A stretch of 22,828 nucleotides of DNA from positions 1 through 22,828 of the IMG/VR virus record IMGVR_UViG_2737471841_000005; one strand, written 5' to 3'. The number at the start of each line of letters is the position of its first letter. Position 1 is the stretch's first letter. Made by a program: the position numbers and the translations under genes. The notes beneath the pieces were generated by a model. The model had not been told where the DNA came from, did not search any database, and was given only the letters and a program-made list of their open reading frames with translations. Source of the stretch: a virus (Duplodnaviria; Heunggongvirae; Uroviricota; Caudoviricetes). Below are positions 403 to 17,706 of the stretch, piece by piece.

Positions 403-403
403 A
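358..403 (+). repeat. attL core: 46-bp direct repeat lying in the 3' end of ssrA
   Basis: ATGTAGGAATTTCGGACGCGGGTTCAACTCCCGCCAGCTCCACCAA recurs identically at 17707..17752; identity breaks on both sides. Confidence 0.85.
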
Positions 404-410
404 ATAAAAC

Positions 411-446
411 AAGGGGTTACGTGAAAACGTAGCCCCTTTTTCTTTG
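411..446 (+). terminator. Rho-independent terminator after ssrA
   Basis: Hairpin AAGGGGTTACG-TGAAAA-CGTAGCCCCTT followed by TTTCTTTGG. Confidence 0.8.
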
Positions 447-575
447 GTAGTGGCGGCAAAATGGCGATAGCCATGGACTAGGGTTGGGTACACCCACATT
501 GCTCTCTATCCTTATGAGTGATCGCACACACGCCTCTACTTTCAAGCTATATTCTAATCTCAATATGAGGCTACT

Positions 576-1289: not shown

Positions 1290-1366
1290 GTTATTATAGA
1301 ATAATTTTAAAAAATCATTTGCATTCTTCTTGTGTCAAAAATCAAATAACTGTCTCGATATTATTC

Positions 1367-1388
1367 AAAACCCGCCAGCGGCGGGTTA
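1367..1388 (-). terminator. Hairpin terminator downstream of ogr (possibly bidirectional)
   Basis: CCCGCC-AGC-GGCGGG stem-loop; on the minus strand it is followed by TTTT directly after the ogr stop. Confidence 0.55.
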
Positions 1389-1391
1389 GTA

Positions 1392-1607
1392 TCAGTAAAC
1401 TAATTGCTCCTGCATCCCTTTGGGATGCGGTGGGGCGGCACTGATTTTCTCGGGACGACAAACAGAACGAACAAAGGTTTCATGCGTTACAAACGTATGC
1501 CCACACTCAATATTAGTGCACTGATTGTAACGCTCTTTGGTTTGAGAGGAGACTTGAAAACTACTGCGAGTATGTGCGGCCTGACCACACAACGGACAAT
1601 TCATCAT
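1392..1607 (-). CDS. ogr: Ogr-type late transcription activator (C4 zinc finger)
   Basis: 71 aa, MMNCPLCGQAAH...CTNIECGHTF; Cys pattern and size as in P2 Ogr; located after gene D as in P2. Confidence 0.85.
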   Translation of the reverse strand: MMNCPLCGQAAHTRSSFQVSSQTKERYNQCTNIECGHTFVTHETFVRSVCRPEKISAAPPHPKGMQEQLVY

Positions 1608-1675
1608 TTATCAACTCTCCTCATCTTTGCTATATTTACAATAATGATACACCATTATTCAATATTGAGAACCAT

Positions 1676-2776
1676 TTATTCCATCTCAAGATCACCAATC
1701 CTCACTTCAAGCTCAAGACTGGTCGTAAAACCGTTATCCGGGCTGACGGTATGTGTCAGAGTCGTAATGGTCCATTCCGCATCATCTATCGGCTGTTTAA
1801 AGCCACTGACCTTCACAGGCATTTCTGTGTAGAGGTCTGCCCGCCCTTCCGCCAGTTGTAGCGAGAATGATGCAACGCCGCGTTGCAGGCGTTCCCACTG
1901 CATTTTCGCTGCCCGTTCGGCGTTGCTCCGGTTGGCATAAGTGCGATTAAGTACCAGCACGTTTTCATCCGTACCCACCAGATAATCGCCCTGCTTCGCT
2001 TCCGGCTCTTTCTTCTGCTTCTTAGTCTTGCGCTTACGCTTCACCGTAGTGCTTTCTTTCTTCGCGGGTTCGCGGGTATGCAACCAGCTGGCAATTACAC
2101 CCGTATAGGCTCCGCGATCTGCCAGGGTAAAGCGGTGACTGTCGCCGTCTTTACGTGTGATAGAGATCACCGGCAGTGGTTTACCGCTGGCGCTTTTGCC
2201 CTGTCCCTGCCGGATGAATAACAGATTGCCATTTTTCACCGACGCGATGGCACCGTACTGTCGCGCCAGCCGCATCAGAAAACTACCGTCACTCTCATTA
2301 GTCTGGTCTATATGCTCTACGAGCTTATCCGACAGGTCTTTACCCAGTGCCATCTTCAGCTTATGCCGCGAGGCTATTTCCTTCACCACTTCCCCGACGG
2401 TGGTCTTATGCCACGATTTTTCACGGCGGGTATTCAGCGTTTCCCGAAAATCAGCACTTCGCGCCCGGATAGTCAGGCGATCCGGTGCGCCAGTGTGTTC
2501 AATCTCGTCCACCGTGAATGCCCCTTTCGGGAAAAGCGGCTGCCCCTTCCAGCCCAGCGCCAGCGTGATGACCGCACCACGGCGCGGCAGCACGATTTTT
2601 CCGTCGGCGTCGTCCAGCTCCAGATCAAGCTGGTCTGCTTCAAAGCCCCGATTGTCCGTCAACGTCAGACTCATCAGGCGGTTATCCAGCACAGTGGTGA
2701 TATCCTTCCCCTCAATACTGATGCTGAATGCGGGAGTTTTGTTGCCTTTGTTAAGCAGTTCAGAGCTGAAATTCAC
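1676..2776 (-). CDS. D: Tail protein gpD (P2 late gene D family)
   Basis: 366-aa ORF, last gene of the FI-FII-E-T-U-D synteny; GTG start overlapping the gpU stop. Confidence 0.8.
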   Translation of the reverse strand: MNFSSELLNKGNKTPAFSISIEGKDITTVLDNRLMSLTLTDNRGFEADQLDLELDDADGKIVLPRRGAVITLALGWKGQPLFPKGAFTVDEIEHTGAPDRLTIRARSADFRETLNTRREKSWHKTTVGEVVKEIASRHKLKMALGKDLSDKLVEHIDQTNESDGSFLMRLARQYGAIASVKNGNLLFIRQGQGKSASGKPLPVISITRKDGDSHRFTLADRGAYTGVIASWLHTREPAKKESTTVKRKRKTKKQKKEPEAKQGDYLVGTDENVLVLNRTYANRSNAERAAKMQWERLQRGVASFSLQLAEGRADLYTEMPVKVSGFKQPIDDAEWTITTLTHTVSPDNGFTTSLELEVRIGDLEME

Positions 2777-3258
2777 GACAGCAGCCCTCCCACCGTTTTA
2801 CTGATATCGCTTAAGGCAGACGTTGCCGTGTCCTGCAGATTATTCAGTTGAGTACTGAGATCACCGAACATATCGGACAGGGATTCATCCACCCGTTTTA
2901 GCGAAAGGGTGAACTCAATCCTGCGCGGCATACCGTCGCGGAAAAACTCCGTTTTAGTCTGATTCAGTCCCTCAATCACATACATGCCGTAAATCGTGCC
3001 GCTGCCTTCAATCAGGGGCCATGCTTTCCCCTGTTCTGCCATCTGCTCCAGTGCCAGCAACGACAGCCTGCCGCCTGTTATCTCCGGCATAAGAACACCG
3101 GAAAGCGTCAGCATGTCGTTTTCCGGTCCCAGAAACTGCGTGGACGGACGACGGTTTACCCGGCTGTTTGCCGCATGTCGCCAGCTGCGTTGATACTGCA
3201 GTTCCTGATACGGAACGGTGCGCAGCATAAACACGTACAATCCCAGCACCATCATCAT
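2773..3258 (-). CDS. U: Tail protein gpU
   Basis: 161-aa ORF between tape measure and D, translationally coupled on both sides; P2 gpU size. Confidence 0.8.
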   Translation of the reverse strand: MMMVLGLYVFMLRTVPYQELQYQRSWRHAANSRVNRRPSTQFLGPENDMLTLSGVLMPEITGGRLSLLALEQMAEQGKAWPLIEGSGTIYGMYVIEGLNQTKTEFFRDGMPRRIEFTLSLKRVDESLSDMFGDLSTQLNNLQDTATSALSDISKTVGGLLS

Positions 3259-6200
3259 GCGTCGTATCCCCCCTGATCGCTGTAGTTACTCCTGGCTTTT
3301 GCCTTCAGCCTGCGTTCACGTTCATCAAGCTGGCGTGCCACCTCCCGCGCAATATCCTGCGCACTTTGTCCTGGCTGCGTCTGAATGATGATCTGCGTCG
3401 GTGCCTCAATCCGTTGAACGAGCGGCACAGTGGCTGCGCGACTCACAATTGCTTCTCCACCTTTCGCGGGAAGTGCCAAAGGGTGCAACGGTGGAAGCTC
3501 TGCTGGCGCGGCAGCAACGCCCATCATTCCGGCAACAACGGCAGCCAGTGCAGCTGTATTTCTCCGGCTGGTCACATTTGCCGGGCCGTTAACAATTTCC
3601 GGCCCGTTTTCACCGACGATGCCAAACTGCCCGCGCGGGATATACCCGCCGCTGTCATACATCCCCGCAAAGCCATATCCCCATGACGGAAAACCACCCG
3701 ATGGCATCATCACTTTACCGTCTGCATTCACCGTCGCAGGTTGCTGACGCGTCACGCTTTCCGGCAGTTTTGCCTTTGCGGCCTCTTTACTGACAATGCC
3801 AAGTTTCTCCAGCAACCAGGAAACGCCGGATTTCAGGGAGTCCAGCGGATGCATGACCATATTCAGCCCTTCCGCCAGTGCCTCTCCGAATCGCCGCCCC
3901 ATTGCCGCTGCACTCTGCAGTTCGGCAGAGGTCGACTTAACGGGCGTCAGCAGATCAGTAAACCAGCCCCACAGCGCCTGTACTTTGTCGCCAATCCACT
4001 GGAACACGGGCTTAAGCGGTTCGAATGCTGCACTGATGGGACCTGCCGCCGCTTTGAATCCTTCCACCACGCCACCAAGAAATGCGGTGATGGGTTGCCA
4101 GTATTTCCAGACAACCAGCGCCACGCCCGCCAGTGCAGTAACCACAAGACCTATCGGACTGAGCAGAGCACCTAACAGACCAGATACGGCATACAGGGCA
4201 ACGCGCAGCATCGCCAGTGGACCAGATGCCAGTACTCGCAGCACCGTGCCTGCGGCGACCAGTCCACCGCGCAGTACCGCCAGAGGATTCATAAACATCA
4301 CAGCAACAGCACGTAAACCGGATAATCCAGACCGCAAAAGTGCAACCGGCGCACCTGCTACAGTTTTCAGGACATTTCCCGTCAGTGATGCCGTGCGGCG
4401 CAAAGACGACAACGGCGCAGTAAGTAAACCTGCGGCGTTGCCCGATGAAGCAAGCCCGCGTCGCAGCAGTGCCAGTGGTGCGCCAGCCAACCAGGACAAC
4501 GCGCTGCTGGTTCGAGTTACTGCTGCCGTAACAGAAGGTAACGTTTTGATACCCAGCACAGAGAATCCCAGACGGATCACTGCCAGCGGCCCCAGCACTG
4601 CAGCCAGCGCCACCGCTAAGGTGCCGAGGCCTACTGTAACCGCAGCCACAACAGCCGCTACTTTCATCAGTGTGCCTGTCAGTTCCGGGTTAGCTTCCAC
4701 CCAGCGGCGCAACGCCCCCGTGATTCTTTTCACCGTGTACAGAATATCCATCAGCGGCTGGCGCAGCGTTTCGCCCAGGCTGCTGAAGGTGTTCTGCGCT
4801 CCGGTTTTGACCAGCAACCACTGAGCAGAAAGTGAGTCTTTGTTGATGTCGGATTCTTTCTGCATGGAACCGAGCGCATCATTGCCCGCTGTCAGTTTTA
4901 GCTGGCGCTGCAGTTCCGGAAGGTTGTTTGCCAGTTTCGCCGCGTCATCACCAAACTCTTTACCAAACAACATGGTCATGGCAGACAGACGCTTGTCCTG
5001 CGGCAGTGCGTTCACCTTCTCCAGCACACGCTGGATAGTTCCCATCGCATCCTTCGTCATCTGCTTTTCAATCACTTCAGGATTGAGTTTCAGCAGATTC
5101 ATCCCTTCAAAGAAACTCTTGCTTTGCATGGTGGCAATGGACAATTCACGCACCATCGCGTTTGCTGCACTGGCTGCAACCTCCGGCGCAGCGCCCAGTG
5201 TCAGAAAGGTGGAACCCAGTGCCGCCGCTTTACGATAATCCAGACGATCAGCCACACCGCCCAGGCGTTGCATGACATCAATGATGTCTGCCCCTTTCGA
5301 CATGGCGTTATCATCCAGATAGTTCAGCGCATCACCGAGCTGTTCAATATTGCGGGTAGGGATTTTGTAGAGCTGGGCGATTTTCCCCAGACTTTCTGAC
5401 AGTTCATCCGCTGGCAGCTCAAAGGCTGTTGCCGCCTTTGCTGCCGTGCTGGCGAAGGCCAGCAGATCACGTTTCTGGTCTTCCCAGCTGTCGTCAGGGT
5501 TTGCGACGTTCATGCGCGCCCCACCTTCAACCAGTGCAGCGAAGTCCACCGCACCGTTTTCCATCGGCAGCTGTTCGCTGGCAGCCTTGATGGCATCCTG
5601 CATTTCATAAAAACGCGCAGTGCGGTTGCCATTATCGTCACGCAGACCATTGACCTGCTTTGCCACACCTTTCATGGCATCTTCCATGCTGGTATAGCTT
5701 TTTACTGCCGCCATCACTGGCGCACCCATTGCCAGCCCTGCAGCCGTGGTAGTGGCTCCGGCTCCTGCGATGCGATCGCGCACTTCAAGCCGTCTTGAGT
5801 ATTGTTCTCTGGCAGCGTTCATCCGTGCCTGTTGTTCACCCAGACGTTTAAGTGCTCTTTGCTGGCCCTCCAGTGCCTGCCTTGTTTCTTCAGCATTTTT
5901 CTTAAGTTCTCGCTGGGCACTACTGAGTTGTCTGGTATCAATCCCTGATTCTTTAAGTGCCTGACGTTGTCTCTGGACCGCCCCCAACAAGCCGTTATAG
6001 GTCTGCTGAAGTTCCTGTACTCGTGTTTTGGCCTGACTGAATAACTTTGCCTGCGCGGCGGTTGGCCTGTTAGTGGCAGCAAATTGTGTGGCGAGTTTTG
6101 CCGCCTCTTCGCGGGCTGCGTTCAGGTTGTTGGCTGTTATGGCTAGTTGCGAGCGCGTCTTGCGAAATTCATCAATTCTGCCAGCCTGCTTATTCAGTTC

Positions 6201-6332
6201 TTTGAGGCTGTTTCGGGTATTCTGAATTGCGCCAGCCAGCTCTTTCGAACTGGCCTGTGCAGCACGGAATGGGCGGGTGAGTTTGTCAACCGTATTAAGA
6301 ATGACCTGCAGGCGCAGGTTATTATCACTCAT
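3255..6332 (-). CDS. T: Tail tape measure protein gpT
   Basis: 1025-aa ORF; N-terminal coiled-coil-like region, Ala/Gly/Leu-rich hydrophobic stretches, C-terminal domain; position after E/E' as in P2. Confidence 0.9.
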   Translation of the reverse strand: MSDNNLRLQVILNTVDKLTRPFRAAQASSKELAGAIQNTRNSLKELNKQAGRIDEFRKTRSQLAITANNLNAAREEAAKLATQFAATNRPTAAQAKLFSQAKTRVQELQQTYNGLLGAVQRQRQALKESGIDTRQLSSAQRELKKNAEETRQALEGQQRALKRLGEQQARMNAAREQYSRRLEVRDRIAGAGATTTAAGLAMGAPVMAAVKSYTSMEDAMKGVAKQVNGLRDDNGNRTARFYEMQDAIKAASEQLPMENGAVDFAALVEGGARMNVANPDDSWEDQKRDLLAFASTAAKAATAFELPADELSESLGKIAQLYKIPTRNIEQLGDALNYLDDNAMSKGADIIDVMQRLGGVADRLDYRKAAALGSTFLTLGAAPEVAASAANAMVRELSIATMQSKSFFEGMNLLKLNPEVIEKQMTKDAMGTIQRVLEKVNALPQDKRLSAMTMLFGKEFGDDAAKLANNLPELQRQLKLTAGNDALGSMQKESDINKDSLSAQWLLVKTGAQNTFSSLGETLRQPLMDILYTVKRITGALRRWVEANPELTGTLMKVAAVVAAVTVGLGTLAVALAAVLGPLAVIRLGFSVLGIKTLPSVTAAVTRTSSALSWLAGAPLALLRRGLASSGNAAGLLTAPLSSLRRTASLTGNVLKTVAGAPVALLRSGLSGLRAVAVMFMNPLAVLRGGLVAAGTVLRVLASGPLAMLRVALYAVSGLLGALLSPIGLVVTALAGVALVVWKYWQPITAFLGGVVEGFKAAAGPISAAFEPLKPVFQWIGDKVQALWGWFTDLLTPVKSTSAELQSAAAMGRRFGEALAEGLNMVMHPLDSLKSGVSWLLEKLGIVSKEAAKAKLPESVTRQQPATVNADGKVMMPSGGFPSWGYGFAGMYDSGGYIPRGQFGIVGENGPEIVNGPANVTSRRNTAALAAVVAGMMGVAAAPAELPPLHPLALPAKGGEAIVSRAATVPLVQRIEAPTQIIIQTQPGQSAQDIAREVARQLDERERRLKAKARSNYSDQGGYDA

Positions 6333-6761
6333 CGTTGGCCCCGCTTCTCTGAATCGCTTTATACCGCCATTCCAGCACTTCGGTCAGCGGCATAACGTCA
6401 GTAACGGATGGCGGCCAGTGAAAGATGGTGGCGATATCAGCCACCAGATCGTCAACCGTCAGGCTGTCGGTAAACCGGCAAGCACCGACTTCTTCAACAA
6501 AAAAGTGACAACCTCAACCGACATGGCAGTGAGATCTGCCGGGTCCATCTCTGCGATTTCCTGTGCAGTCAGTGCCGGACTGGAGATGCGGGGGATCACG
6601 GTCATCATCGCGTTCACATCCATATCCATAATGGCCTGCAGGCGTGTGCCGCGCAGCGCACCGGACTGCGGTTTACGCAGCACAATTTCGGTAATTTCTG
6701 TTTTACCGCGCATGATGGGAGTATCCAGTTTAATAGTCTTTTCAGTCTGCTTATCGCTCAT
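6325..6761 (-). CDS. E': gpE+E' fusion made by programmed -1 ribosomal frameshift at T TTT TTG (6498..6504)
   Basis: Slippery heptamer on the minus strand at codons 87-88 of E; the -1 frame stays open for 57 codons (VEEVGACRFTDSL...RSGANDE) and stops at TGA 6325..6327 overlapping the gpT start; about 145 aa total, as for P2 E+E'. Confidence 0.7.
6459..6761 (-). CDS. E: Tail assembly chaperone gpE (in-frame product)
   Basis: 100-aa ORF MSDKQTEKTIKLDTPIMRGK... between FII and T; carries a T TTT TTG slippery site near its 3' end. Confidence 0.85.
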   Translation of the reverse strand: MSDKQTEKTIKLDTPIMRGKTEITEIVLRKPQSGALRGTRLQAIMDMDVNAMMTVIPRISSPALTAQEIAEMDPADLTAMSVEVVTFLLKKSVLAGLPTA

Positions 6762-6815
6762 TTTGCTGTCCTGTAAATTGGGTTCTGGCGCGGCATTCCG
6801 CGCCGTTCAGATACA

Positions 6816-7331
6816 TCAGAGGCCGAGGGCGTTGCGGTGCGCTTCCATCAGGTCCACACCGTCCACAATTTCCACCATGTTGATAAGGTCCACTTCATAG
6901 AGCACCTCACCATTGATAGTCAGCTTCGCGTAGCTGTTGGTACTGGTCACTTTGGTGGTGTTGCTTTCGCCCGTCTTCCACTCGCCGGAATCCACTTCTT
7001 TGTGACGTCCACGCACCACAAGCTCCACGGCCTGCACTTCTCCGGTATCGTCACGCTGGATAGAGCCGGTGAAGCGCAACTGGATGCCATCCACCGTGGC
7101 TTTGCCCATCTGTTTAAACAGCAGCAGTTCAGTACCACCAATGGAAAATTCTGTGTCCAGCGCACTGTCATCAAGCCCCAGATCCACATCCACTGCACCC
7201 GGCATTCCGCCGCCGCGATACTTCTCATATTTGCGGGTGAATTTCGGCAGCGTCAGCGACTCAACGATCCCCTGCCAGTTGTTCCCGTCATTAAACAGGT
7301 TCAGGTGTTTTAATTTGCGTGGTAAAGCCAT
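6816..7331 (-). CDS. FII: Tail tube protein gpFII
   Basis: 171-aa ORF MALPRKLKHLNLFNDGNNWQG..., size and position as in P2 FII. Confidence 0.9.
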   Translation of the reverse strand: MALPRKLKHLNLFNDGNNWQGIVESLTLPKFTRKYEKYRGGGMPGAVDVDLGLDDSALDTEFSIGGTELLLFKQMGKATVDGIQLRFTGSIQRDDTGEVQAVELVVRGRHKEVDSGEWKTGESNTTKVTSTNSYAKLTINGEVLYEVDLINMVEIVDGVDLMEAHRNALGL

Positions 7332-7340
7332 GTTGTCCCC

Positions 7341-8513
7341 TTACGCGCTGACCTGGCTGGAGAAATTCACCAGGTACTGATCGGTGATGCGCTGACGCAG
7401 CATCAGGTTTTCAAGTGGCGGCACTGGCGTGTAGTCGTAGTCGATGGTGAGTTTTCCGGCTTTCAGCGTGTCTTTGTCGTTCACCGACTCATCCAGCCAG
7501 CAATCACCACCAATGAGATAGCCCTGACTGACCAGGCTGCGCATTTTGGCGCGGATACCCTCGATAATGTCGCGGGCCAGCGACGGGTTAAGCGGTTTAT
7601 CCACCGCCCACATGTGTGCTTCTGCCATCGTGTCCATCAGTACCTGCGCTGTACGGGTGTAGTTCTCGAAGGCAAAGAGCGGGTCATCACTCAGGCAGCG
7701 GGAACCCCAGAAGCGGAAACCATCCTTGCGCACAAGCGTGGTGACGTCGTTCTGGTTCAGCAGACCTGCATCGGTTGCCGGGTCCTGCAGATCCCAGAAC
7801 ACATCAGCAGAAATTCCGGTGACACCGTTCACGCCCACGTTGGACAGGCTTTTGTGCCATCCGGTCTGCTCATCAATTTTGGCGCGCAGACCGAGCGCAC
7901 GGGCGGTGGCATAAGCCGTTGCTTCGGCATTCAGCACCGTGTCCCAGCCAGTAAAGTCGGGCCAGATCAGCATTCCTTCACGCTGACTGAAGTTTTCACG
8001 GTAAGTGATCGCCTCCTGTACCGTCTTGCAGCCATACGCTGACAGGTAAGCAAACCCACGCAGGCTTTGCGCCACGCTCAGCAACTCAGTAGCTACCGCC
8101 TTGGTGTCGTGGCCTGGCACGCCGAGAATGCGCGGTTTAACGCCGAGCTGTGACTGGGCAGATAACAGGGCTTTCATACCTGTTTTTTTACCTTCAGCAG
8201 TCACTGCGCCGATGATATTGGTCGTGGTTTCGTCTTCCGTTTCACCCTGCGGCACACGCACAACAATGGTCACGGGTTTTGCCTGGTCAGCGATGGCATC
8301 CAGCGAACGGGCCAGAGTACCTGACTCACCCGCTTTACCGCTGGCAGTCAGCACATCAGTGATCAGCACGGGTTTATTAAGAGGAAACATTTTTGCATCG
8401 GCATCATCGCCCGTGCAGACCATACCCACGATGGCGGTGCTCACCGTGGTAATAGATCGGGTGCCTTCGTTGACTTCAACAACGCGCACCCCGTGGTGGT
8501 AATCCTGAGCCAT
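7341..8513 (-). CDS. FI: Contractile tail sheath protein gpFI
   Basis: 390-aa [22 protein letters not shown]..., first gene of the tail operon; AGGAGG RBS upstream. Confidence 0.9.
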
Positions 8514-8589
8514 AGTGGCGAACCTCCTGATTGGATTAGGCTTCGCCCTATGTTGAAGTGATTGTGCCTGACAAACAGCTAAGCGCAGT

Positions 8590-8607
8590 TGTGTCGTTAT
8601 TCACACA
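8590..8607 (-). promoter_or_regulatory. Candidate Ogr-dependent late promoter element (TGT-N12-ACA dyad) for the FI operon
   Basis: TGTGTCGTTATTCACACA dyad about 85 bp upstream of the FI start codon; matches the P2 late-promoter activator site pattern. Confidence 0.4.
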
Positions 8608-8655
8608 AAATAACGGTATTTGTCTGCTTGCAGGGATAATCAACATAATGCTGAT

Positions 8656-9228
8656 TCAGGGGGATTCATTGATCTTATTTGCCGGAAATTTTCTATAAAT
8701 GGTAGAAACGCCTACATCAAAAATCAGTGCAATACGCTGTCTTGATTCTCCGGCCTCGAGTAAACGCCCAATCTGTGCCCACTGTTCGGTGGTCAACTTA
8801 GGATGGCGTCCACCTACTCTGCCTTTGGCACGAGCTGCAGCCAGCCCTGCCCTGGTACGTTCAACTATCAGTTCGCGTTCCATTTCAGCCAGGGCACCCA
8901 TGACATGAAAAAAGAAACGGCCCATTGGGGTACTGGTATCAATACTGTCAGTCAGGCTTCTGAAATTCACACCACGCTGGCGCAACTCTTCTATCAGCGT
9001 AACAAGATGCCGCATACTGCGCCCCAACCTGTCCAGCTTCCAGACAACCAGCGTGTCTCCTGCCGATAGTGTCCTGAGTAGTTTTTTCAGCCCCGGTCTG
9101 TCGGACTTAGTGCCACTGATTTTGTCCTCAAAAATCTGCTCACATCCCGCGCAGTTCAGTGCATTACGTTGCAAATCGGTGTTCTGGTCATTTGTTGACA
9201 CGCGTACATAGCCAATAAGCATGATCAT
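8656..9228 (-). CDS. Serine DNA invertase, Pin/Gin/Cin/Hin family
   Basis: 190 aa, MLIGYVRVSTNDQNTDLQRNAL... with catalytic Ser motif and C-terminal HTH; likely true start at the MLIGY Met (9222). Confidence 0.9.
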   Translation of the reverse strand: MIMLIGYVRVSTNDQNTDLQRNALNCAGCEQIFEDKISGTKSDRPGLKKLLRTLSAGDTLVVWKLDRLGRSMRHLVTLIEELRQRGVNFRSLTDSIDTSTPMGRFFFHVMGALAEMERELIVERTRAGLAAARAKGRVGGRHPKLTTEQWAQIGRLLEAGESRQRIALIFDVGVSTIYRKFPANKINESP

Positions 9229-9276
9229 CCCCCTGAATAAAAACCGGAGATGATGCCAGTTAGCTGTTACCTCTGC

Positions 9277-9302
9277 ATTTTCTTAAACGTTGGTTTGGGA
9301 GA
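9277..9302. other. Invertase crossover site (gix/pix-like, 26 bp)
   Basis: Reverse complement TTCTCCCAAACC-AA-CGTTTAAGAAAA resembles the gix half-site TTATCCAAAACC with a central AA dinucleotide; about 50 bp upstream of the invertase start, as gixR is for gin. Confidence 0.55.
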
Positions 9303-9663
9303 AGCAGCGAAACGGGGTGTGGGAACAGGGGAAAATCAGATACCGGACATGGCTTCTTTTGCCAGTGGTGATGGATGGATGAAATTACCCAACGGTAAAA
9401 TTCTGCAATATGGTCGAGGTGAGGCTATGCCGAAATTATCGACGCAAACAATGAGGATTACATTTCCTATCCCTTTCCCTAAAAAAGCGGACTGCGCCAT
9501 TCTTACCCATTCTGGTGATGGCGGTGCGCCTTTAGGCGCTGGGCGAGGGTTCGTGATGACTGCAGAAGGCCCTACGTTAACCGGCTTTAATTCTGCTTAC
9601 AGAACGTCATCAACCAGCGACACGGTATCTATGCATTACAGTTGGTGGGCTGTTGGTGAGTAA
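9277..9663 (+). pseudogene. Orphan tail-fibre variable C-terminal segment (Sv'-like)
   Basis: Reading frame opens at the crossover site and runs away from the invertase; Gly/Ser/Thr-rich fibre-tip-like sequence; no constant N-terminal fibre part in the window. Confidence 0.45.
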
Positions 9664-9674
9664 TTTTATTCAGG

Positions 9675-9850
9675 GTGATTTATATGAACGAATATGTTTA
9701 TAGTGCCAAGCATAATGCTTTTTTCCCTGTGGATATGATTGATAAATATAAATCAGTAGGATGGGATTTATCAGATGCTAAGGAGGTGAATCAAAATATT
9801 GTCAGTGAGTTTATGGCTGAACCGCCACAAGGAAAAGTCCGTATTTCCGC
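9675..9850 (+). pseudogene. Tail-fibre assembly (Tfa/U'-like) gene, N-terminal fragment
   Basis: Starts MNEYVYSAKHNAFFPVDMIDKYKSVGW, resembling the N-terminus of phage tail-fibre assembly proteins; recognisable sequence stops after about 55 codons where the gpA-like gene overlaps on the other strand. Confidence 0.45.
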
Positions 9851-10951
9851 GATAAGCTCCAGACCTTTAACACAGACCATCATCTCATTGCGGCGATGCG
9901 CAGGGTTGCTGCTGCTGGCGTTTACCACATCTTCCATATCCAGCGTGTCGCCGTCTTCGTTCACCAGTTCATGAGAACGAAAAAACTCCAGCGACTTACG
10001 GCGCTGCTCACGTTTATGCATCACGGCTTCATAGCTGACATAGGGGGATGCTTTTTTGCTGACCAGGCAGACAGCACGCAACTGCTCTTCCCGCCATTCG
10101 CAACGCATCTTCCATAATTTCCGATACCACCAGTCGGCACACAACATACGCGCCAGCGAACCCGGAATGAGTTCATAGGGCACGGGTTTACGGCGGTTTC
10201 TTTTCCGACGGAGTTGCTCAAACGCAGGCGGAATAACATCCAGACGCAGGGTTTCCGCTGCCACCTTTTCCCATGTTTTGCGGATTTCTTCTGGCTTAAC
10301 GTCATCGGTGGCATACAAATCGCCACAAGCTGCATCAAGACACATGCTCATATGCGCAGCAACAAGGGTGGACAGGCGTTTCACCTGATCCTGACTCATT
10401 TCAGGCAGGATCAGCAGGCCGTCCAGCCCTTCATGGCTTGCCATAAAGCGAAAAGAAGTGGATAGCTGACTCTCGCGTACATGCTCCAGTCGTTCCAGAC
10501 ATGGCTTAATCGTCTCACGCAAATAGCGGGAATAAGCCTTTGGCCTGCCCAGGCTGCTGAAGTATTCAATACGTTGCATCAGCGGCTTGCTGATATGGGA
10601 AGGCTGGGCGTTGACGTCCGCCAGAATGACCATGTCTGGATTAAAACGCTGCTGCTCATGCGCCAGCTTTGCCCGGCTAATGAGCTTATCCTGCTCCATT
10701 TCGCGCTGGACAGGATCACGGGATTCATTAAAGAAATAACGCTCCCAGACCTGATCACTCAGTGCCTCGCGGCGCAGTTGTTCCTGCTCGTTATCGGCAG
10801 CGTACAGAGTGATCAGGTTTGAAAGCGCAGAAACCGGCGCAACTTCTGCCGGGTCCAGATAAGGGTTAATAGCCTTTTTCGGGCTGTCCCATGAGAATGC
10901 TGCGGCGGCCTCGTTAAAGCCGCTGCAGTTGTTCATATCAGCATGGCTCAT
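9791..10951 (-). pseudogene. gpA-like replication initiation protein, C-terminally truncated by a deletion
   Basis: 386-aa ORF coupled to dam upstream (ATGA overlap) in the gpA position; about half the length of P2/186 gpA and ends in non-conserved sequence overlapping the tfa fragment. Family call is by position and weak recall. Confidence 0.45.
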
Positions 10952-11805
10952 GCACGCACTCCGTACACGGCAGAACTATCCACGCCACGCGAAGGATCAA
11001 ATCCCACCCAGCAGCGCGCCCCAGAAACAGCGATGATTTCTGTTGCAGATTTACTCTCACCAGCTGCTACGCCGATGCTGCGTTTTGCCTTGATGTAGTG
11101 GTGAGTAAAATTGCGATACAGCGAACGGATCAGGGATGTGTCACTGTTAGAAACAATGACCGGATGTCCTTCTGATGACCGATGTTCAAGAACGGATGCC
11201 AGGTGATACTGGTCATCTTCAGTGAAGCCGTCAGTGTGATAACCGGAAAACGTGCCGTCATACGGCGGATCGCAATACACCACATCCCCCGCCTTCAACA
11301 TCGCCAGCGTTTCATCAAAGCTGGCGCAGATAAACGTTGCCCGCTGGGCTTTCTCTGCAAATGCGCGAATTTCTTTTTCAGGGAAATACGGATTTTTATA
11401 ATTACCGTAGGGAATGTTGAAATACCCGCTCTTGTTATAGCGACATAACCCACGGTAACCATGACGATTGAGATACAGAAAATATACCGCTTTCATGAAA
11501 TCAGTAATTTCAGTGGAGTAATTAAACTCCTGCCTTATGTTGTAATAAGCCACCTCCCTGTTTGCTTCCTCAAATAAAGCTCTGGCACGAGATATAAATG
11601 CCTCACAATCAGCAGCAACCTTTTTATAGAGGTTGATTAAATCAGGATTAATATCCGCAACAAGATAGCTGGGGTAATCCGTCTCCATCATCACAGCACA
11701 GGAACCCGCGAAAGGTTCAACCAGTCGCGGGCCAGCAGGAAGGTGTTTTTTCAGTTCGGACATAATGGCGGTTTTATTTCCCGCCCATTTCAGGATGGTG
11801 CTCAT
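10948..11805 (-). CDS. dam: DNA adenine methyltransferase (Dam-like, GATC N6-adenine MTase)
   Basis: [11 protein letters not shown]...LVEPFAGS...DPPY motifs as in E. coli Dam; GGAGGTG RBS 5 nt before the ATG at 11805; overlaps the TraR-like stop. Confidence 0.9.
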
Positions 11806-12029
11806 ACAGCACCTCCGTTGTAATGTTTGCCTTTCAGCTCTGCAATTTCCTGGCAGGTAATGCAAAGCTGCACACCCGGAATGGCACGGCGGCGTGCTGG
11901 CGGAATTGGCGCTTCACACTCAATGCAAAGCACGCGAGACACGCCCGGTGTTTTGGCACGGGCAGCACGGATATGGCGCTGGCGTTCTTCTTCAACGCGC
12001 TGCTGTACGAGATCCATTGCATCAGCCAT
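11802..12029 (-). CDS. TraR/DksA-family C4 zinc-finger protein
   Basis: 75 aa with CIECEAPIP...CITCQ Cys pairs; typical small P2-like early-region gene. Confidence 0.8.
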   Translation of the reverse strand: MADAMDLVQQRVEEERQRHIRAARAKTPGVSRVLCIECEAPIPPARRRAIPGVQLCITCQEIAELKGKHYNGGAV

Positions 12030-12268
12030 TAGTGGATCTCCTGCGCTTCGTTCTGGATTGCTTCAGCAGTCACACGCAGCAGTTCTGCCGCTTCCACGTG
12101 GTTTAGCTGACGGGATGAGATATGACACGCCAGGCTATCAAGGCGAGCTGCCATTGCTTCAGCCCTTGCCCGGCGTTCTTCCAGACGAGCCTCTGTCAGT
12201 AAAATATTAAGCCCTGCATCATCCGGTCCGGTTTTAGTCATGAGGATTTCAATATTACGCATAATCAA
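12029..12268 (-). CDS. Hypothetical phage early-region protein
   Basis: 79-aa ORF in the early operon, tightly packed with neighbours; no family recognised. Confidence 0.5.
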   Translation of the reverse strand: MIMRNIEILMTKTGPDDAGLNILLTEARLEERRARAEAMAARLDSLACHISSRQLNHVEAAELLRVTAEAIQNEAQEIH

Positions 12269-12329
12269 TTCTCCTGAATTTAGATAAAGGGATGCTCGGC
12301 GGGTTTACGCCATTAATTTCATTAGTTGG

Positions 12330-12671
12330 TTAATTCGGCATGGTTAGCCGTCTGGGAAATAAGCTCACCACTGCACGAAAATGATTCATTGCTTTAATCA
12401 ACTCCCGCTTTTCGTCAGTGGTCAGCTCATTGATGCTGATGCTATGACGTTCAGCCGGAATTTTTGCCATAAAGAATATGGCTGCCAGTGCTCGTTTATT
12501 TTGTTCGTTATTGATATCCCGTGGATCACGCATATCTTTAATAAACCGCTCAAGCTCTGACTCAATATTCAGGCCAAAAACTTTCGCCCTTAATTCCGCT
12601 ATGTGATTAAGTCCATTCAGGCGTTCACCGGGGCTTAATGGAACAGTCGCCGCAGCGCCTTCAATAGCCAT
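12330..12671 (-). CDS. Hypothetical phage early-region protein
   Basis: 113-aa ORF in the early operon; no family recognised. Confidence 0.5.
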   Translation of the reverse strand: MAIEGAAATVPLSPGERLNGLNHIAELRAKVFGLNIESELERFIKDMRDPRDINNEQNKRALAAIFFMAKIPAERHSISINELTTDEKRELIKAMNHFRAVVSLFPRRLTMPN

Positions 12672-12835
12672 TTGTTCCCCCGTTTTTTCGTAGATAGTTC
12701 TGCCAGCAATTCATCTTGTGAACGGCACGGATGCCAGCGTTTACCATCCTCACCCATGATCCAGCCGTGACCGTAGTGCATTGCCGGACTTTGTTTTACC
12801 AGCAGCGATGCAAATGATGGTTCTTTCGTCAGCAT
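12635..12835 (-). CDS. Hypothetical small phage protein
   Basis: ORF downstream of cII; likely start at the internal Met (MLTKEP), avoiding overlap with cII. Confidence 0.4.
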   Translation of the reverse strand: MLTKEPSFASLLVKQSPAMHYGHGWIMGEDGKRWHPCRSQDELLAELSTKKRGNKWLLKALRRLFH

Positions 12836-12842
12836 AAGCACC

Positions 12843-13352
12843 TCACAGCAAACCGAATGAAGCACCGAGGCCGGTTACAGTATCAACTGCACTTGCCATC
12901 GCAGGATTAACCTGTAAACGGGCCTGCAATGAAACAGCAGCTAACGCCATCAGTCGTGTAACAGAGTTAATGCTGCTGATAGCATCACGACGACCTGCAC
13001 TGGTTTTTACATCGCCAGATACCGCACCTGCAGCAACACGCCCGATCTCTGCGGTTGCACTCATGACGTAATGTGGCAGTTTCTCTTTTGCCACCTCATT
13101 AATCGGTACACATGGCAGGCAGTGAATCTGTGCCAGAAAACCGTCTACCAGCGTTGAATCTTCCGTCAGATCGGTAAGTAGCCAGATATCTGGCGCATTG
13201 AGCTGATGCGGTTGATCTGGGTTGAGTTTGTTTCGCAGAGTCTGGACATTCATTCCTGAACGTTCTGCCAGCTTCGCCATATTGTGACGAAGTGCAAAAG
13301 CTCTACAGGCTTCATCAAAATGCGGGTGTTTGGAAATCTTATAATCAAACAT
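12843..13352 (-). CDS. cII: 186-type CII lysogeny-establishment regulator
   Basis: 169 aa, MFDYKISKHPHFDEACRAFALRHNMAKLAE...; size and second position in the rightward operon match coliphage 186 CII. Confidence 0.7.
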   Translation of the reverse strand: MFDYKISKHPHFDEACRAFALRHNMAKLAERSGMNVQTLRNKLNPDQPHQLNAPDIWLLTDLTEDSTLVDGFLAQIHCLPCVPINEVAKEKLPHYVMSATAEIGRVAAGAVSGDVKTSAGRRDAISSINSVTRLMALAAVSLQARLQVNPAMASAVDTVTGLGASFGLL

Positions 13353-13384
13353 GCTACCCCCTTAGAAAGTTCTCATAATTGAAC

Positions 13385-13627
13385 TTACTTACCAACAATG
13401 ACGCGGAAGTTGGAATGACCGAGGGATTCACGGACCTGATCGGTTTTGTACATTAAATAACGCAGGCTTACGCGGCCTTTGTTTTTTTCTTTCTTGACCA
13501 TGTATTTAGCAAGCTGACCATGATGAATTTTTTGATACACAGAGCCGCGGGAGATACCTTCCCATTCCGCGAACTCTGCAGGCGTAGCCATCTCTTTTGG
13601 TACACGAATTGAAATATCAGTGCTCAT
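13385..13627 (-). CDS. apl: Apl/Cox-type excisionase and transcriptional regulator
   Basis: 80-aa basic HTH protein, first gene of the lytic operon, divergent from cI; GGAG RBS upstream. Confidence 0.7.
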   Translation of the reverse strand: MSTDISIRVPKEMATPAEFAEWEGISRGSVYQKIHHGQLAKYMVKKEKNKGRVSLRYLMYKTDQVRESLGHSNFRVIVGK

Positions 13628-13685
13628 AGTGCAGTATCTCCCGATTAAGGTTTGGTTTACGTCGTTTTATCTCGTTTTACTTGAT

Positions 13686-13729
13686 TCAATATTTGATACA
13701 TCGAGATACTACGATCCAATATTTGATAC
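13686..13729. repeat. Two 13-14-bp direct repeats (CAATATTTGATAC) spaced 30 bp apart, bracketing the pR -10; candidate CI operators
   Basis: Copies at 13686..13699 and 13716..13729; second tandem pair TCGTTTTA at 13662..13669 and 13672..13679. Confidence 0.45.
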
Positions 13730-13734
13730 GTCAA
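13706..13734 (-). promoter_or_regulatory. Candidate lytic promoter pR for apl-cII (-35 TTGACG, 17-bp spacer, -10 TAGTAT)
   Basis: Minus-strand hexamers at 13729..13734 and 13706..13711 with 17-bp spacing, about 75 bp upstream of the apl ATG. Confidence 0.55.
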
Positions 13735-13746
13735 CAGGATTAAAAA

Positions 13747-14379
13747 ATGATACAGGTAAAGGTTGGAGAGAATACAGGGGGAAGAGAGGCTATCCATAGA
13801 CTAATGGCAGCCTATGATTTCAAGTCCAGACAGCAACTTTGCGATCACTTAGGCGCATCAAAAAGCACCATGGCAAACAGATACTTAAGAGATAGTTTTC
13901 CTGCAGAGTGGGTGATTCAGTGCGCCTTGGAAACAGGAGTTTCTTTACTGTGGCTAACCACCGGACAGGGGGAGCCAGGTCCAAACATTGAACCTAAAAA
14001 AAATATCAATTCCGTGAACTCCAGCAAGGTTGTACCTCTTTCTGAACTAGTATCTCCTGAAATTGACAAGGCGACTCTCAACGGTGGTTTATTGGTCGAT
14101 GCTGGAAAAGCAATCATTGATAGCAGCATACTCCCCTCAGACTCAAGCAACCTACTGCTGGTGACTACTTCTGGTGATTCTTATTTAATAGATCGCAACC
14201 AAACACCACCAGTAAATGGTATGTGGTTAGTCGATATTGACGGGATAAAAAGCATTGTTAAATTGACTCGACTTCCGGGAAACAAATTAGTAGTGCATCA
14301 GGATGATTCATCGTTTGAGTGTGGCCTAGATGACATTGAGGTAGTAGGCCGCGCACTGAAAATCATTAAGAGCCTTTGA
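13747..14379 (+). CDS. cI: 186-type CI immunity repressor
   Basis: 210 aa; N-terminal HTH region with ...CALETGVSLLWLTTGQGEP resembling 186 CI; immediately precedes int on the same strand. Confidence 0.8.
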   Translation: MIQVKVGENTGGREAIHRLMAAYDFKSRQQLCDHLGASKSTMANRYLRDSFPAEWVIQCALETGVSLLWLTTGQGEPGPNIEPKKNINSVNSSKVVPLSELVSPEIDKATLNGGLLVDAGKAIIDSSILPSDSSNLLLVTTSGDSYLIDRNQTPPVNGMWLVDIDGIKSIVKLTRLPGNKLVVHQDDSSFECGLDDIEVVGRALKIIKSL

Positions 14380-14380
14380 T

Positions 14381-15397
14381 ATGACCATCAGAAAACAGCC
14401 GAACGGAAAATGGTTGTGTGAGTGCTATCCCAATGGACGCAATGGTAAGCGCGTGCGTAAGCAATTTGCTACGAAAGGCGAAGCCATTGCTTTTGAAAGC
14501 TTCACAATGGAAGAAGTGAATAAAAAACCGTGGTTGGGTGAAAAGGATGATCGGCGACGCCTATCAGAATTAATTGAGCTTTGGTATTCCCTGTATGGTC
14601 AGACACTCGCAGACCCCAAGCGCCTCATGGCGAAACTTAGAATTATCTGTAATGGTCTAGGCGACCCCATCGCCTCAGAACTGACAGCCGGTGACTTTAC
14701 GAAATACCGCGAAGCACGATTAAAAGGTGACGTTCGTAACGAAGACGGCACACTAATGTCGCCAGTAAAACCACGCACGGTGAATCTTGAGCAACGTAAC
14801 CTATCATCGGTTTTCGGCACATTGAAAAAACTAGGCCACTGGTCAGCACCAAATCCTCTCGCCGGGCTGCCAACATTTAAAATCGCTGAGGGGGAACTGG
14901 CGTTCCTGACCTCGGAAGAAATTAAACGTCTGCTAGATGCCTGCGCTGATTCTCAAAACCCCAGTCTGCTTTTGATTGCAAAAATATGCCTGGCCACCGG
15001 CGCACGCTGGAGTGAAGCTGAAAACCTGCAGGGCCATCAGTTATCTAAATACCGCATCACTTATACCAAGACGAAGGGTAAGAAAAACCGCACCGTGCCG
15101 ATATCTCAAGATCTGTATGACGAACTCCCCAAGAACAGAGGGAAGCTATTCACCCCGTGCAGAAAAGCCTTTGAACGAGCAGTAAAGCGAGCTGGCATCG
15201 AGCTGCCAGAGGGCCAATGCACTCACGTGCTACGTCATACATTCGCCAGCCATTTTATGATGAATGGCGGAAACATACTGGTGCTGCGCGATATTCTGGG
15301 CCATGCCGATATAAAAATGACGATGATTTACGCCCACTTTTCGCCCGATCACCTTGAAGATGCGGTAACTAAAAACCCTTTATGCAACTTAAGATAG
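14381..15397 (+). CDS. int: Tyrosine integrase, P2/186 family
   Basis: 338 aa; N-terminus like P2 Int (PNGRNGKRVRKQFATKGEAIAFE), catalytic ...TGARWSEA..., HVLRHTFASHFMMNGG and MIYAHF (R-H-R-Y). Confidence 0.92.
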   Translation: MTIRKQPNGKWLCECYPNGRNGKRVRKQFATKGEAIAFESFTMEEVNKKPWLGEKDDRRRLSELIELWYSLYGQTLADPKRLMAKLRIICNGLGDPIASELTAGDFTKYREARLKGDVRNEDGTLMSPVKPRTVNLEQRNLSSVFGTLKKLGHWSAPNPLAGLPTFKIAEGELAFLTSEEIKRLLDACADSQNPSLLLIAKICLATGARWSEAENLQGHQLSKYRITYTKTKGKKNRTVPISQDLYDELPKNRGKLFTPCRKAFERAVKRAGIELPEGQCTHVLRHTFASHFMMNGGNILVLRDILGHADIKMTMIYAHFSPDHLEDAVTKNPLCNLR

Positions 15398-15713
15398 AGT
15401 AACTTATGAAAACAAACTCAAACTATTTACAAATATAATATTCAGCAGGTTATCCATTCTCATTTAACTCTTCAGACTGAGTTTAGGTTTTATTTATAGA
15501 ATAAGATAATTTTTACATCACAAAAAAACATATAAGCCCTCATCTTTGTTGTATAAAAACATCAAAGATGCCACATTCAAAAATAGTAGAAAAGCATAGC
15601 ATTGCAACATTAAAAAGAAACCAATAAAAAACAGTCATTAGAAAATGAAAAAAACAAAAACATTTTTTATCGAAGCTTCAGTCTGACTACTAGTTTGACT
15701 CTGCAATTAACTT

Positions 15714-15745
15714 TCAAGATGATCAATATTTATTGATCATCTTGA
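15714..15745. repeat. Near-perfect 32-bp palindrome (15-bp arms, TT centre) with two GATC sites
   Basis: TCAAGATGATCAATAT-TT-ATTGATCATCTTGA; lies about 30 bp past the 3' end of the deaminase gene in the AT-rich int/cargo spacer. Confidence 0.7.
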
Positions 15746-15777
15746 AGCTTACCTCAGGAAGGATGAGTATAATATTT

Positions 15778-17511
15778 CTACTCAAGGAGATATTCTAACT
15801 CATCTTTTATCGGGATAATTTGCTCATAAAGTCGGTGATATGACTTCCCAATTGCGCCTCTAAATTGTATTAACTTTGGTGGCTTACTACCTATATTAAT
15901 AATATGGTCTTGAGCTATACCTGGGTAGGGATCAATAAATACAATTTCAGATATACCTAACTGATAAGCTTTTTTCGCACACAACTCACAGGGACTGGCA
16001 GTTGTATACAACTTCCCCCCCAGAACGCCAATACCACCATATTTTGCAAGTTGTAAAAATGCGTTTTCCTCAGCATGTAATGCACGTGTATGAACTTGAT
16101 TACCTTTTTTCTCTTTATCAAGATCATTATGTATATCTTTAAAACAATAAGATAAGTTCCTGCCTCTATAAATATCACCAGTTTTATCTATCGCCCTAAA
16201 ATTTAAGAGTTTCTCATTAGCTTTAATTCTGAAAGAACTATTATTTCTCTCATAATGACTGTACGTTTTTTCATCAAAATCGTTCATTAGGCCATCTAGA
16301 GATCTCATAGAGCAAGGAATCTGACCGTTGGCAACATCATTCCAACCAACTGATTTTATTGAATTATCACCATCAGTTACTACAGCTCCCACCTGTCTAG
16401 ATATACAGCCAGAGTTTAATTTTACCGTATACGCAACTTGCATAACCCTTTCCATTGCAGTAGGTGTTATCAGACCAGGATGCTTCATCAGTGCGATGTA
16501 CCACGCTAATTGTGCTTTTAAAATATTGTCATTATCAAATTCATTTTTTGGGTTAAAAATGTGTATATCTGATAGTTCAATACATTTAGTTACATTTGGA
16601 TTGGTGAGATGTTTGTAAGAGTTATCACCTTTACCTGACTCTACAGAATCTATTTCCTCTATCTGCTTTTCTGAAAACTTATGTAGTTTCCGCAAATAGT
16701 TTGTTCGATGTTCATCTGGGGCATTTATTGACATTAAATGAAATGCAGAATATCTATCCTTAAAAAATTTTGCCTCATATGGATTTCTAATAGCATCTAT
16801 GACAATTAATGCGTTATCTCTTTTGCTTTTTCTTATTAATTTAATAACCCTATTAATAGTTTCCGGCAAATGAAAAACAGATTTAGGCATAAACTCTTTA
16901 TCTTCAAAATCGACTTCAATACGCCCACGACGTCTAATTGACTTACCTGCTAACTGATAGGCTGAAACATATAAATTTGAGTTTATCTCATTTAGTTCAG
17001 CTTTGAATTCTTTAGTAAATTTTCTAACTAACTTCAAAATTGATATAAATTTATTAATCGTTTTTTCATCAAGCTTCAATTCACTATTATGATCAAGCAA
17101 ATTCTCAATTACATTTTTAAATCTTGTCAAAATGAGATTATCTGAGAATACACCAAAAGTTAATACAATATCTAAATGCTCTTTACTGATAAATTTATTA
17201 GATGATAGAATGAATTCAGAAGCTTCCTCAACTGTTAACATCAGAAGATACGCTGAGATTAGGTCACTCACCTTAATTGAGTAAAAATTTTCCCAGTGAT
17301 TTTCTGCGAATTTTTTAACTATATTATAACGATGGACATCCAATCCCTTGTAAAACCCCTGTAATTTACTTACATCAGGGAAGACTGTTTTTTCGTTTTC
17401 AAGAATATTAGCTGTTGTTGTGCAACCAGAACCAGTTCGACCTGTCAAACCGACTAAAATAAACTGCCCATTTTCAAGGAAAAGCTCACTAACGAATTTT
17501 TTTTCTTTCAT
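15778..17511 (-). CDS. P-loop kinase-like / cytidine-dCMP deaminase fusion protein (AvcD/Dcd-type anti-phage candidate)
   Basis: 577 aa from ATG 17511 (GTG at 17514 in the track); N-terminal P-loop-like VGLTGRTGSGCTT, C-terminal zinc deaminase motifs HAEENA (around 16075) and PCELCAKK (around 15990); strongly AT-rich; sits between int and attR. Confidence 0.85.
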   Translation of the reverse strand: MKEKKFVSELFLENGQFILVGLTGRTGSGCTTTANILENEKTVFPDVSKLQGFYKGLDVHRYNIVKKFAENHWENFYSIKVSDLISAYLLMLTVEEASEFILSSNKFISKEHLDIVLTFGVFSDNLILTRFKNVIENLLDHNSELKLDEKTINKFISILKLVRKFTKEFKAELNEINSNLYVSAYQLAGKSIRRRGRIEVDFEDKEFMPKSVFHLPETINRVIKLIRKSKRDNALIVIDAIRNPYEAKFFKDRYSAFHLMSINAPDEHRTNYLRKLHKFSEKQIEEIDSVESGKGDNSYKHLTNPNVTKCIELSDIHIFNPKNEFDNDNILKAQLAWYIALMKHPGLITPTAMERVMQVAYTVKLNSGCISRQVGAVVTDGDNSIKSVGWNDVANGQIPCSMRSLDGLMNDFDEKTYSHYERNNSSFRIKANEKLLNFRAIDKTGDIYRGRNLSYCFKDIHNDLDKEKKGNQVHTRALHAEENAFLQLAKYGGIGVLGGKLYTTASPCELCAKKAYQLGISEIVFIDPYPGIAQDHIINIGSKPPKLIQFRGAIGKSYHRLYEQIIPIKDELEYLLE

Positions 17512-17706
17512 CACGTCCCACTTATGAATGCAAGAACAATTAGCATATTAATTATAATTTATTAACTAATTTTATTCTAGATGCTTGATGTAATGGCGGC
17601 ACTTTGGCGGCAGAGCATTAAAAACGCGTAAGACGAGCAAATACAAAATAACACTAACACATTGTTTTCAAACATAATCTACTGTTTTTACTATAATAAA
17701 AATGGT

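Follow-up and report, generated by a model that had tools for sequence, protein, structure and literature searches.

A palindrome downstream of a prophage-borne dCTP deaminase gene: a probable conserved RNA stem-loop that looks like a relic of integrase coding sequence

The palindrome located between the convergent integrase and anti-phage dCTP deaminase genes of a P2-type prophage remnant is probably a conserved RNA stem-loop in the 3' untranslated region of the deaminase transcript (minus strand), with a putative role in 3'-end protection and insulation; on the basis of the comparative sequence evidence, a probability of roughly 0.55 is assigned to this reading. The palindrome itself is real and exceeds chance. 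The original prediction had regarded it as a non-random element different from a canonical terminator, which is borne out by the present data; the further suggestion of a dimeric protein-binding, recombination or Dam-sensitive site is not supported.

Prophage locus and architecture of the palindrome

All positions refer to the window, i.e. the complete stretch of 22,828 nucleotides that was analyzed (IMG/VR virus record IMGVR_UViG_2737471841_000005). The 3' end of ssrA is found again as a 46-bp copy at 17707-17752; accordingly, the P2-type prophage remnant (Fels-2/186 type) is taken to span positions about 358 to 17752. The features of the locus are the following:

40-402, plus strand: ssrA (tmRNA), with which the window begins
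358-403, plus strand: att core copy at the ssrA 3' end, one prophage boundary
14381-15397, plus strand: tyrosine integrase gene (int) of Fels-2/186 type, convergent with the deaminase gene; its DHLE codons (15347-15358) resemble one palindrome arm (12/13)
15406-15620, plus strand: decayed 5' remnant of a 208-212-aa ORF (orf208; phrog_21256), accounting for most of the 380-nt AT-rich spacer
15701-15757, minus strand: extended imperfect hairpin, predicted for the deaminase-sense RNA; outer pairs poorly conserved
15713-15746, minus strand: core palindrome, from sequence and chance test and from pairing in 10 sequences of four lineages
15715-15724 paired with 15735-15744, minus strand: conserved 10-bp stem, CAAGATGATC/GATCATCTTG
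15778-17514, minus strand: anti-phage dCTP deaminase of AvcD/DcdV type with C-terminal dCMP_cyt_deam_1 domain; hairpin in its 3' flank
17592-17706, no strand assigned: attP arm common to the cargo-less Fels-2 and SEN8, right-hand end of the cargo (ATGGCGGCAcTTTGGCGGCA at 17593-17612)
17707-17752, plus strand: second 46-bp att core copy, other prophage boundary; deaminase gene and palindrome lie inside the prophage

Compared with complete Fels-2-like phages, the prophage delimited by the 46-bp direct repeat is reduced to a remnant of about 17 kb; a still larger deletion, with gene D fused to the replication gene, is found at the sister E. coli locus of FDAARGOS_1337. In a near-identical E. coli locus, the RefSeq gene order is ogr, D, Dam methylase, cII, CI, integrase, "anti-phage dCTP deaminase" and host ypjA; the annotated DNA adenine methylase gene of this locus belongs to the same prophage. 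The deaminase (RefSeq start codon: ATG at 17511) matched the PADLOC dCTPase model (1e-145) as well as the Pfam domain dCMP_cyt_deam_1, and represents cargo between int and attR, convergent with int. Comparison with the cargo-less Fels-2, SEN8 and MLG42 placed the cargo boundaries at the KNPL codons of int (about 15383) and at the attP arm (about 17592); in the search of the phage collection, homology ended at the end of int. In P2-like phages, the interval from int to att is known as a minor defense hotspot (PMC13586616). The cargo-specific DNA ahead of the deaminase start is restricted to about 77 nt (17515-17591), and from 17592 onwards the shared attP arm follows. Between attR and ypjA, a canonical terminator-like hairpin (AAAGCCCACAgaTGTGGGCTTT, then T's) is located at 17879-17900, the second-longest perfect hairpin of the window. 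The gene of the host adhesin-like autotransporter YpjA (18267-21301, minus strand) is represented by the overlapping ORFs 18267-20369 and 20309-21301, and this split suggests a frameshifted pseudogene in the strain.

The stop codons of int and the deaminase gene are separated by a spacer of 380 nt (27% G+C) that contains the palindrome. From 15406 to about 15620, the spacer shares 73-77% nucleotide identity with the 5' end of orf208, and the tblastn match of the spacer to orf208 (E = 5e-9) contains in-frame stops. Intact copies of this ORF are present in Citrobacter, Siccibacter and Enterobacter prophages (L057, 2108-2734; L060, 4874-5500; L061, 1817-2443; L062, 2099-2737), where it directly follows int in co-directional orientation and is convergent with the deaminase gene. 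Its product contains hydrophobic stretches and gave no match in PADLOC, and phrog_21256 has no assigned function; orf208 may be a second cargo or defense gene. An interpretation of the spacer start as a relic of the int C-terminus was dropped, as this stretch is the start of the orf208 pseudogene, and the small ORFs of the spacer (only 20-32 aa) were rejected as coding, the homopolymer-length variation between strains arguing against it. A second, weaker inverted repeat (CATCTTTGTTGT...ACATCAAAGATG; 12-nt arms, 92% complementary) lies inside the orf208 remnant at 15541-15570 and is largely invariant among the spacer variants.

The window letters at 15714-15745 read TCAAGATGATCAATA-TT-TATTGATCATCTTGA, exactly the near-perfect palindrome that had been predicted, except that each arm is one base pair longer than the 15 bp initially given: perfect arms of 16 bp (15713-15728 and 15731-15746; TTCAAGATGATCAATA-TT-TATTGATCATCTTGAA) flank a 2-nt center, and an imperfect extension reaches out to about 15701-15757. 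The described location just past the deaminase gene is likewise correct, the nearest arm end lying 31 nt after the deaminase stop codon, and so are the two GATC motifs (15721-15724 and 15735-15738); with 66 GATC sites observed versus 76 expected, the window is not enriched in this motif. No other hairpin-type inverted repeat of the window is as long (runner-up arms: 10 bp). Arms of 15 bp were reached in one of 200 Markov shuffles of the whole window, and the longest arm among 1000 shuffles with the local AT-rich composition was 13. For the deaminase-sense RNA (15701-15757), a folding energy of -24.8 kcal/mol (z = -7.5) was predicted, the hairpin stability ranging from -22 to -28 kcal/mol (z -5.3 to -7.5). 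A search of the window for further half-sites with up to 3 mismatches recovered only the two arms and two weak matches inside coding sequence.

Distribution and conservation of the stem

Of 5,426 complete E. coli genomes, 20 (the same in the near and distant search modes) carried the palindrome together with its spacer, each at a single locus and always beside this deaminase gene; both were also detected in 12 IMG/VR contigs and three metagenome contigs; among the plasmids searched, neither palindrome nor spacer was found. An 18-mer anchor scan of the metagenomes yielded three true spacers, all with the palindrome, and eight chance matches besides, and the protein scan of the genome contigs returned a single relative, from Photobacterium. 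The matches of a variable-gap pattern scan in L034 and L035 were unrelated coding repeats. A dispersed repeat of the REP/MITE type, with many copies per genome, was rejected on the grounds of the single locus per genome in these 20 E. coli genomes and of the lack of plasmid copies. Among P2-like prophages with int-adjacent cargo, the palindrome proved to be confined to this deaminase cargo and is not a hotspot-wide element. The stem motif is absent from deaminase homologues elsewhere (Photobacterium, Serratia, Yersinia, Providencia, Dickeya, Pantoea and the Klebsiella P2 tail hotspot), in several of which a similar place is occupied by a different hairpin or by a canonical terminator, the latter being the case in Photobacterium at a comparable position. 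Downstream of the homologue of Yersinia enterocolitica (L067/L068, about 3800-3880), a hairpin GAGATAACC...GGTTATCTC precedes a tandem array in which the 9-nt unit TAAAACATC is repeated about nine times.

These data bear on the proposal that the palindrome serves in recombination or mobility of the deaminase cargo, e.g. as an attC-like or transposon-end hairpin. A hairpin beside a mobile cargo gene in the minor int-att defense hotspot of P2-like phages (PMC13586616) invites such an interpretation. It is nevertheless extremely improbable: the cargo boundaries are situated elsewhere, in the KNPL codons of int and at the attP arm, with the hairpin in a consistently internal position; the motif is missing from deaminase homologues in other contexts, it is present in a single copy per genome, and there is neither a partner site nor a recombinase besides Int.

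Within the window lineage, the alignment of 17 distinct spacer variants contained one variable column among the 30 of the arms versus 66 of 357 in the rest of the spacer (Fisher one-sided p = 0.02); as other invariant blocks of 24-25 nt exist in the spacer, arm conservation alone is weak evidence. The variant L036 has a 4-nt insertion that is confined to the loop and leaves the arms intact. In strains Z226-5/-6 one GATC is lost by a change that gives G.U on the deaminase-sense RNA; an outer-stem change in 2020N21-246 disrupts one base pair of the deaminase-sense strand, and an outer pair is lost through another change in NCTC9038.

Beyond this lineage, the comparison comprised four int-adjacent cargo lineages with a stem CAAGATGAYC/GRTCATCTTG, i.e. 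the window, the 89% class, the L030 class and the L063 class (deaminase amino acid identity 72-89%). The stem starts 28-46 nt after the deaminase stop across the four lineages (about 30-31 nt in the window). In the 89% lineage, hosted by Citrobacter portucalensis, Siccibacter colletis and Enterobacter hormaechei, the hairpin ACAAGATGACC-(13 nt)-GGTCATCTTGT/G is found 28 nt after the deaminase stop, and an intact 208-212-aa ORF lies between int and the deaminase gene. In the L030 (72-75%) and L063 (76%) classes the deaminase stop is only 6-10 nt away from the int stop; here the stem is part of the int coding sequence, TCAAGATG(A/G)TC-(26 nt)-GGTCATCTTGA, with the DIKMT and DHLE codons forming its arms at 43-46 nt from the deaminase stop. 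The stem keeps a constant short distance from the deaminase stop irrespective of what adjoins the other side, where its place is within int, about 65 nt behind orf208 or 310 nt behind int; the loop is free to vary.

All 10 core pairs were paired in 10 of 10 sequences from the four lineages. In two core pairs, both partners were exchanged (U-A to C-G in one, U-A to A-U in the other); the observed covariation was reached in 7 of 500 shuffles, on a shallow sampling with two double changes only. One-sided core changes (Z226-5, L063) result in G.U on the deaminase-sense RNA and in A.C on the other strand, strand-specific wobble evidence that is weak given the few events, of which one is codon-forced (Thr, Asp), and one counter-example; the L030/L063 stem is also under int coding constraint. 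The window and the 89% lineage differ at only two arm positions, which together form one compensated pair (rough joint probability about 0.003), at a divergence of about 21% in the aligned flanking non-coding sequence and of 32% at third codon positions. With its pairing kept across diverged homologues by compensatory changes, the palindrome qualifies, as far as such comparisons indicate, as a conserved structured RNA element. The conservation covers the stem sequence as well as the pairing, which could mean that the sequence is specifically recognized, or no more than that the lineages share a recent ancestor.

The gap between the conserved 10-bp arms amounts to 2 (stem extended), 8, 13-14 or 26 nt, depending on the lineage, and such variable spacing is unfit for a fixed dimer geometry on duplex DNA, whereas it is tolerated in a hairpin loop. 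The GATC motifs are a property of the window lineage: the 89% lineage has GACC/GGTC and the L063 class GGTC/GGTC (no GATC in either), and the L030 class a single site. Both results are adverse to the duplex-DNA site for a dimeric, possibly Dam-methylation-sensitive protein that was originally proposed. This proposal has in its favor the perfect dyad symmetry with two GATC motifs 14 bp apart, the Dam gene within the prophage and the conserved stem sequence, since symmetric (compensatory) changes would also keep a dyad site. Its probability is very small, however: three of the four lineages, and likewise Z226-5/-6, have one GATC or none, the half-site spacing ranges from 2 to 26 nt, no other half-site copies are found in the window or elsewhere in E. 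coli genomes, and E. coli itself methylates GATC, so that the phage Dam adds no specificity. Nor does the location suit a regulatory site, as the palindrome lies between two convergent 3' ends and not at a promoter. The Dam-regulated GATC pairs of pap, agn43 and the SeqA sites resemble the palindrome in having two GATC about one helical turn apart, but differ from it insofar as the GATC motifs of the palindrome are unconserved and without promoter context, and no partner protein motif was found. Most likely, the two GATC sites are incidental and do not constitute a Dam-methylation switch. An IHF site was discarded as well, the consensus being unmatched by eye and the ATCAA motif absent in the other lineages. 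Taken together, the non-conserved GATC, the variable spacing and the lack of a second copy argue against the dimeric or Dam-sensitive site and for a hairpin.

Probable descent from an integrase 3' end

The palindrome region matched int 3' ends of the L030/L063 type, loop remnants included (CTTCAAGATGATC[-7]AA[-3]TAAATAT[-4]TGATCATCTTGATA), and gave no alignment with other int genes. In three of the four pairings (window versus L030, and the 93% class versus L030 and versus L063), the alignment beat all 500 shuffles; for the window versus the L063 int 3' end, the score was reached by 14 of 500 shuffles. The inverted repeat formed by the IKMT and DHLE codons has 9-10 of 12 Watson-Crick pairs in the deaminase-abutting int genes (3' ends at L030, 5769-5870, and L063, 3738-3840, compared with 15296-15397 of the window) versus 4-7 of 12 in 15 other int genes, and is strong only in the former. 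From these alignments, the int 3' end appears to have been co-inherited with the deaminase cargo, and the palindrome of the window looks like an int-fragment relic that descended from the DIKMT...DHLE codons.

According to the most economical history suggested by the alignments, the deaminase gene would originally have abutted int, and the stem would have been part of the int 3' end. A new int end and orf208 would subsequently have been acquired by rearrangement, leaving the detached int fragment at the deaminase 3' end, where it may have decayed with the exception of the stem. In the window lineage, about 14 nt of the loop would then have been lost, giving rise to the near-perfect palindrome and, as a by-product, to the GATC pair; in this lineage the hairpin outlasted the decay of orf208. 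A spacer deletion by recombination between a palindrome arm and the int DHLE codons was rejected, the int C-terminus predicted for such a fusion not matching the L030 class.

Such a descent also admits the explanation that the palindrome is nothing but a non-functional relic, i.e. an unselected, decaying int 3'-end fragment left behind by cargo-swapping recombination, whose near-perfection arose via loop deletions or template-switch "quasipalindrome correction". This account is unlikely, albeit with an appreciable share of the probability. It fits the alignment to the L030/L063-type int 3' end including the loop remnants, the gene decay in the surroundings (the orf208 pseudogene) and the invariant blocks of 24-25 nt elsewhere in the spacer, which render the conservation within the lineage unexceptional; moreover, the arm substitution count alone is unremarkable at the measured non-coding divergence (p about 0.18). 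It does not readily explain why the arms are fully paired in the two lineages in which no coding constraint acts on them (the window and the 89% lineage) although the adjacent sequence is 19-36% diverged with indels, why the sole arm differences between these two lineages are compensatory, why the distance to the deaminase stop was kept, and why deletions took loop sequence but never arm sequence.

A putative 3' stem-loop and its relation to known elements

If the palindrome acts as a 3' stem-loop of the deaminase transcript, transcription would start at the deaminase promoter beside the attP arm and proceed through the gene into the hairpin. Without a U-tract, efficient termination by the hairpin on its own is improbable; the structure would rather define the mRNA 3' end and shield it from 3'-5' exonucleases after termination or polymerase collision further downstream. 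In addition, it may help to insulate the deaminase unit from the convergent lysogenic cI-int(-orf208) unit.

A canonical intrinsic terminator, with a G+C-rich stem of about 5-14 bp, does not describe the element: the stem comprises 16 bp with 4 G/C per arm (25%), and a run of U 3' of the stem is absent on both strands (deaminase-sense tail, AGUUAAUUG; int-sense tail, GCUUACCUC) and likewise in the other lineages. In this respect, the earlier description as AT-rich and untypical of an intrinsic terminator was accurate. The promoter and terminator consensus scan gave nothing above chance at the palindrome. Within 100 nt downstream, the C>G (rut-like) bias was absent (C 11, G 16, U 47%), which is weak evidence against Rho dependence as rut is loosely defined. 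In consequence, neither intrinsic nor Rho-dependent termination is positively indicated. The canonical terminators that flank phage morons and cargo genes are comparable in their location immediately downstream of an independently transcribed cargo gene, but differ from the palindrome, which has an AT-rich stem and no U-tract in any lineage. Given the lack of a U-tract in all lineages, the element is read as a U-tract-less 3' stem-loop. The closest class is the protective 3' stem-loop of the Dar & Sorek type, which shares the stable stem-loop just after the stop, the missing uridine tail and the proposed role in defining and protecting the mRNA 3' end; the palindrome deviates from this class by the lack of a rut-like downstream bias and by an unusually long, AT-rich (16 bp, 25% GC) and sequence-conserved stem. 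On this reading, the element would be of an ordinary kind, a stem-loop at the end of a gene; its ancestry, as an int fragment put to new use, would be the unusual part.

As a long hairpin of RNA close to int and att in a temperate phage, the palindrome also recalls the lambda sib/tI retroregulation hairpin. By analogy, the palindrome might be an RNase III or antisense-control element, a long duplex whose processing tunes the deaminase or the cI-int mRNA. The stem of the deaminase-sense RNA, perfect over 16 bp and extendable to about 22 pairs, and the convergent transcription units that meet at the palindrome are compatible with this idea. The Rfam scan of 15300-17900 retrieved only the att copy of the tmRNA end and, on the hairpin, a sub-threshold match resembling a miRNA precursor, which reflects the long perfect stem shape and nothing more. 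Overall, a control element of this kind is improbable: with 11-13 bp and large loops, the conserved stem of the other lineages falls below the length of a typical RNase III site. In contrast to sib, the palindrome belongs with the convergent deaminase gene and is located on the int side of att in the phage as well as in the prophage state, which makes sib-type differential control impossible; as both att cores (358-403 and 17707-17752) lie outside the int-palindrome segment, identity with a sib-type retroregulator was rejected.

The AvcI/DifV antitoxin sRNA of AvcID is comparable in being a non-coding element attached to an AvcD-type deaminase. AvcI, however, has 152-174 nt and is situated 5' of avcD in the same orientation, whereas the palindrome forms a hairpin of 34-60 nt 3' of the gene; identity of the two was rejected on account of this position. 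A 150-174-nt 5' sRNA of the avcI type (V. cholerae) would not fit into the approximately 77 nt of cargo-specific upstream DNA unless it overlapped the attP arm. In view of the conserved stem sequence and of this private upstream DNA being too short for a Vibrio-type avcI, the hairpin could alternatively serve this AvcD lineage as a sequence-specifically recognized regulatory RNA that was exapted from a piece of integrase coding sequence; examples would be an RNA derived from the 3' UTR, or a cis element, that might bind the deaminase, restrain it or sense phage-induced transcription shut-off. We consider this a decidedly speculative option of low probability.

Provided that the interpretation as a 3' stem-loop of the deaminase transcript is true, the locus would be a small example of defense cargo in the int-att hotspot of P2/Fels-2-like phages that is kept as a self-contained transcription unit. 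It would also indicate that part of a coding sequence, here the integrase 3' end, can be retained as an RNA structure during the decay of neighboring genes, and it would do away with an attractive but unsupported connection between the Dam methylase of the prophage and the defense gene. For the biology of AvcD, the observation on the upstream sequence may matter more than the palindrome: as the phage-borne AvcD genes have hardly any upstream sequence of their own, one may ask in what way, if at all, these deaminases are restrained by an AvcI-like RNA.
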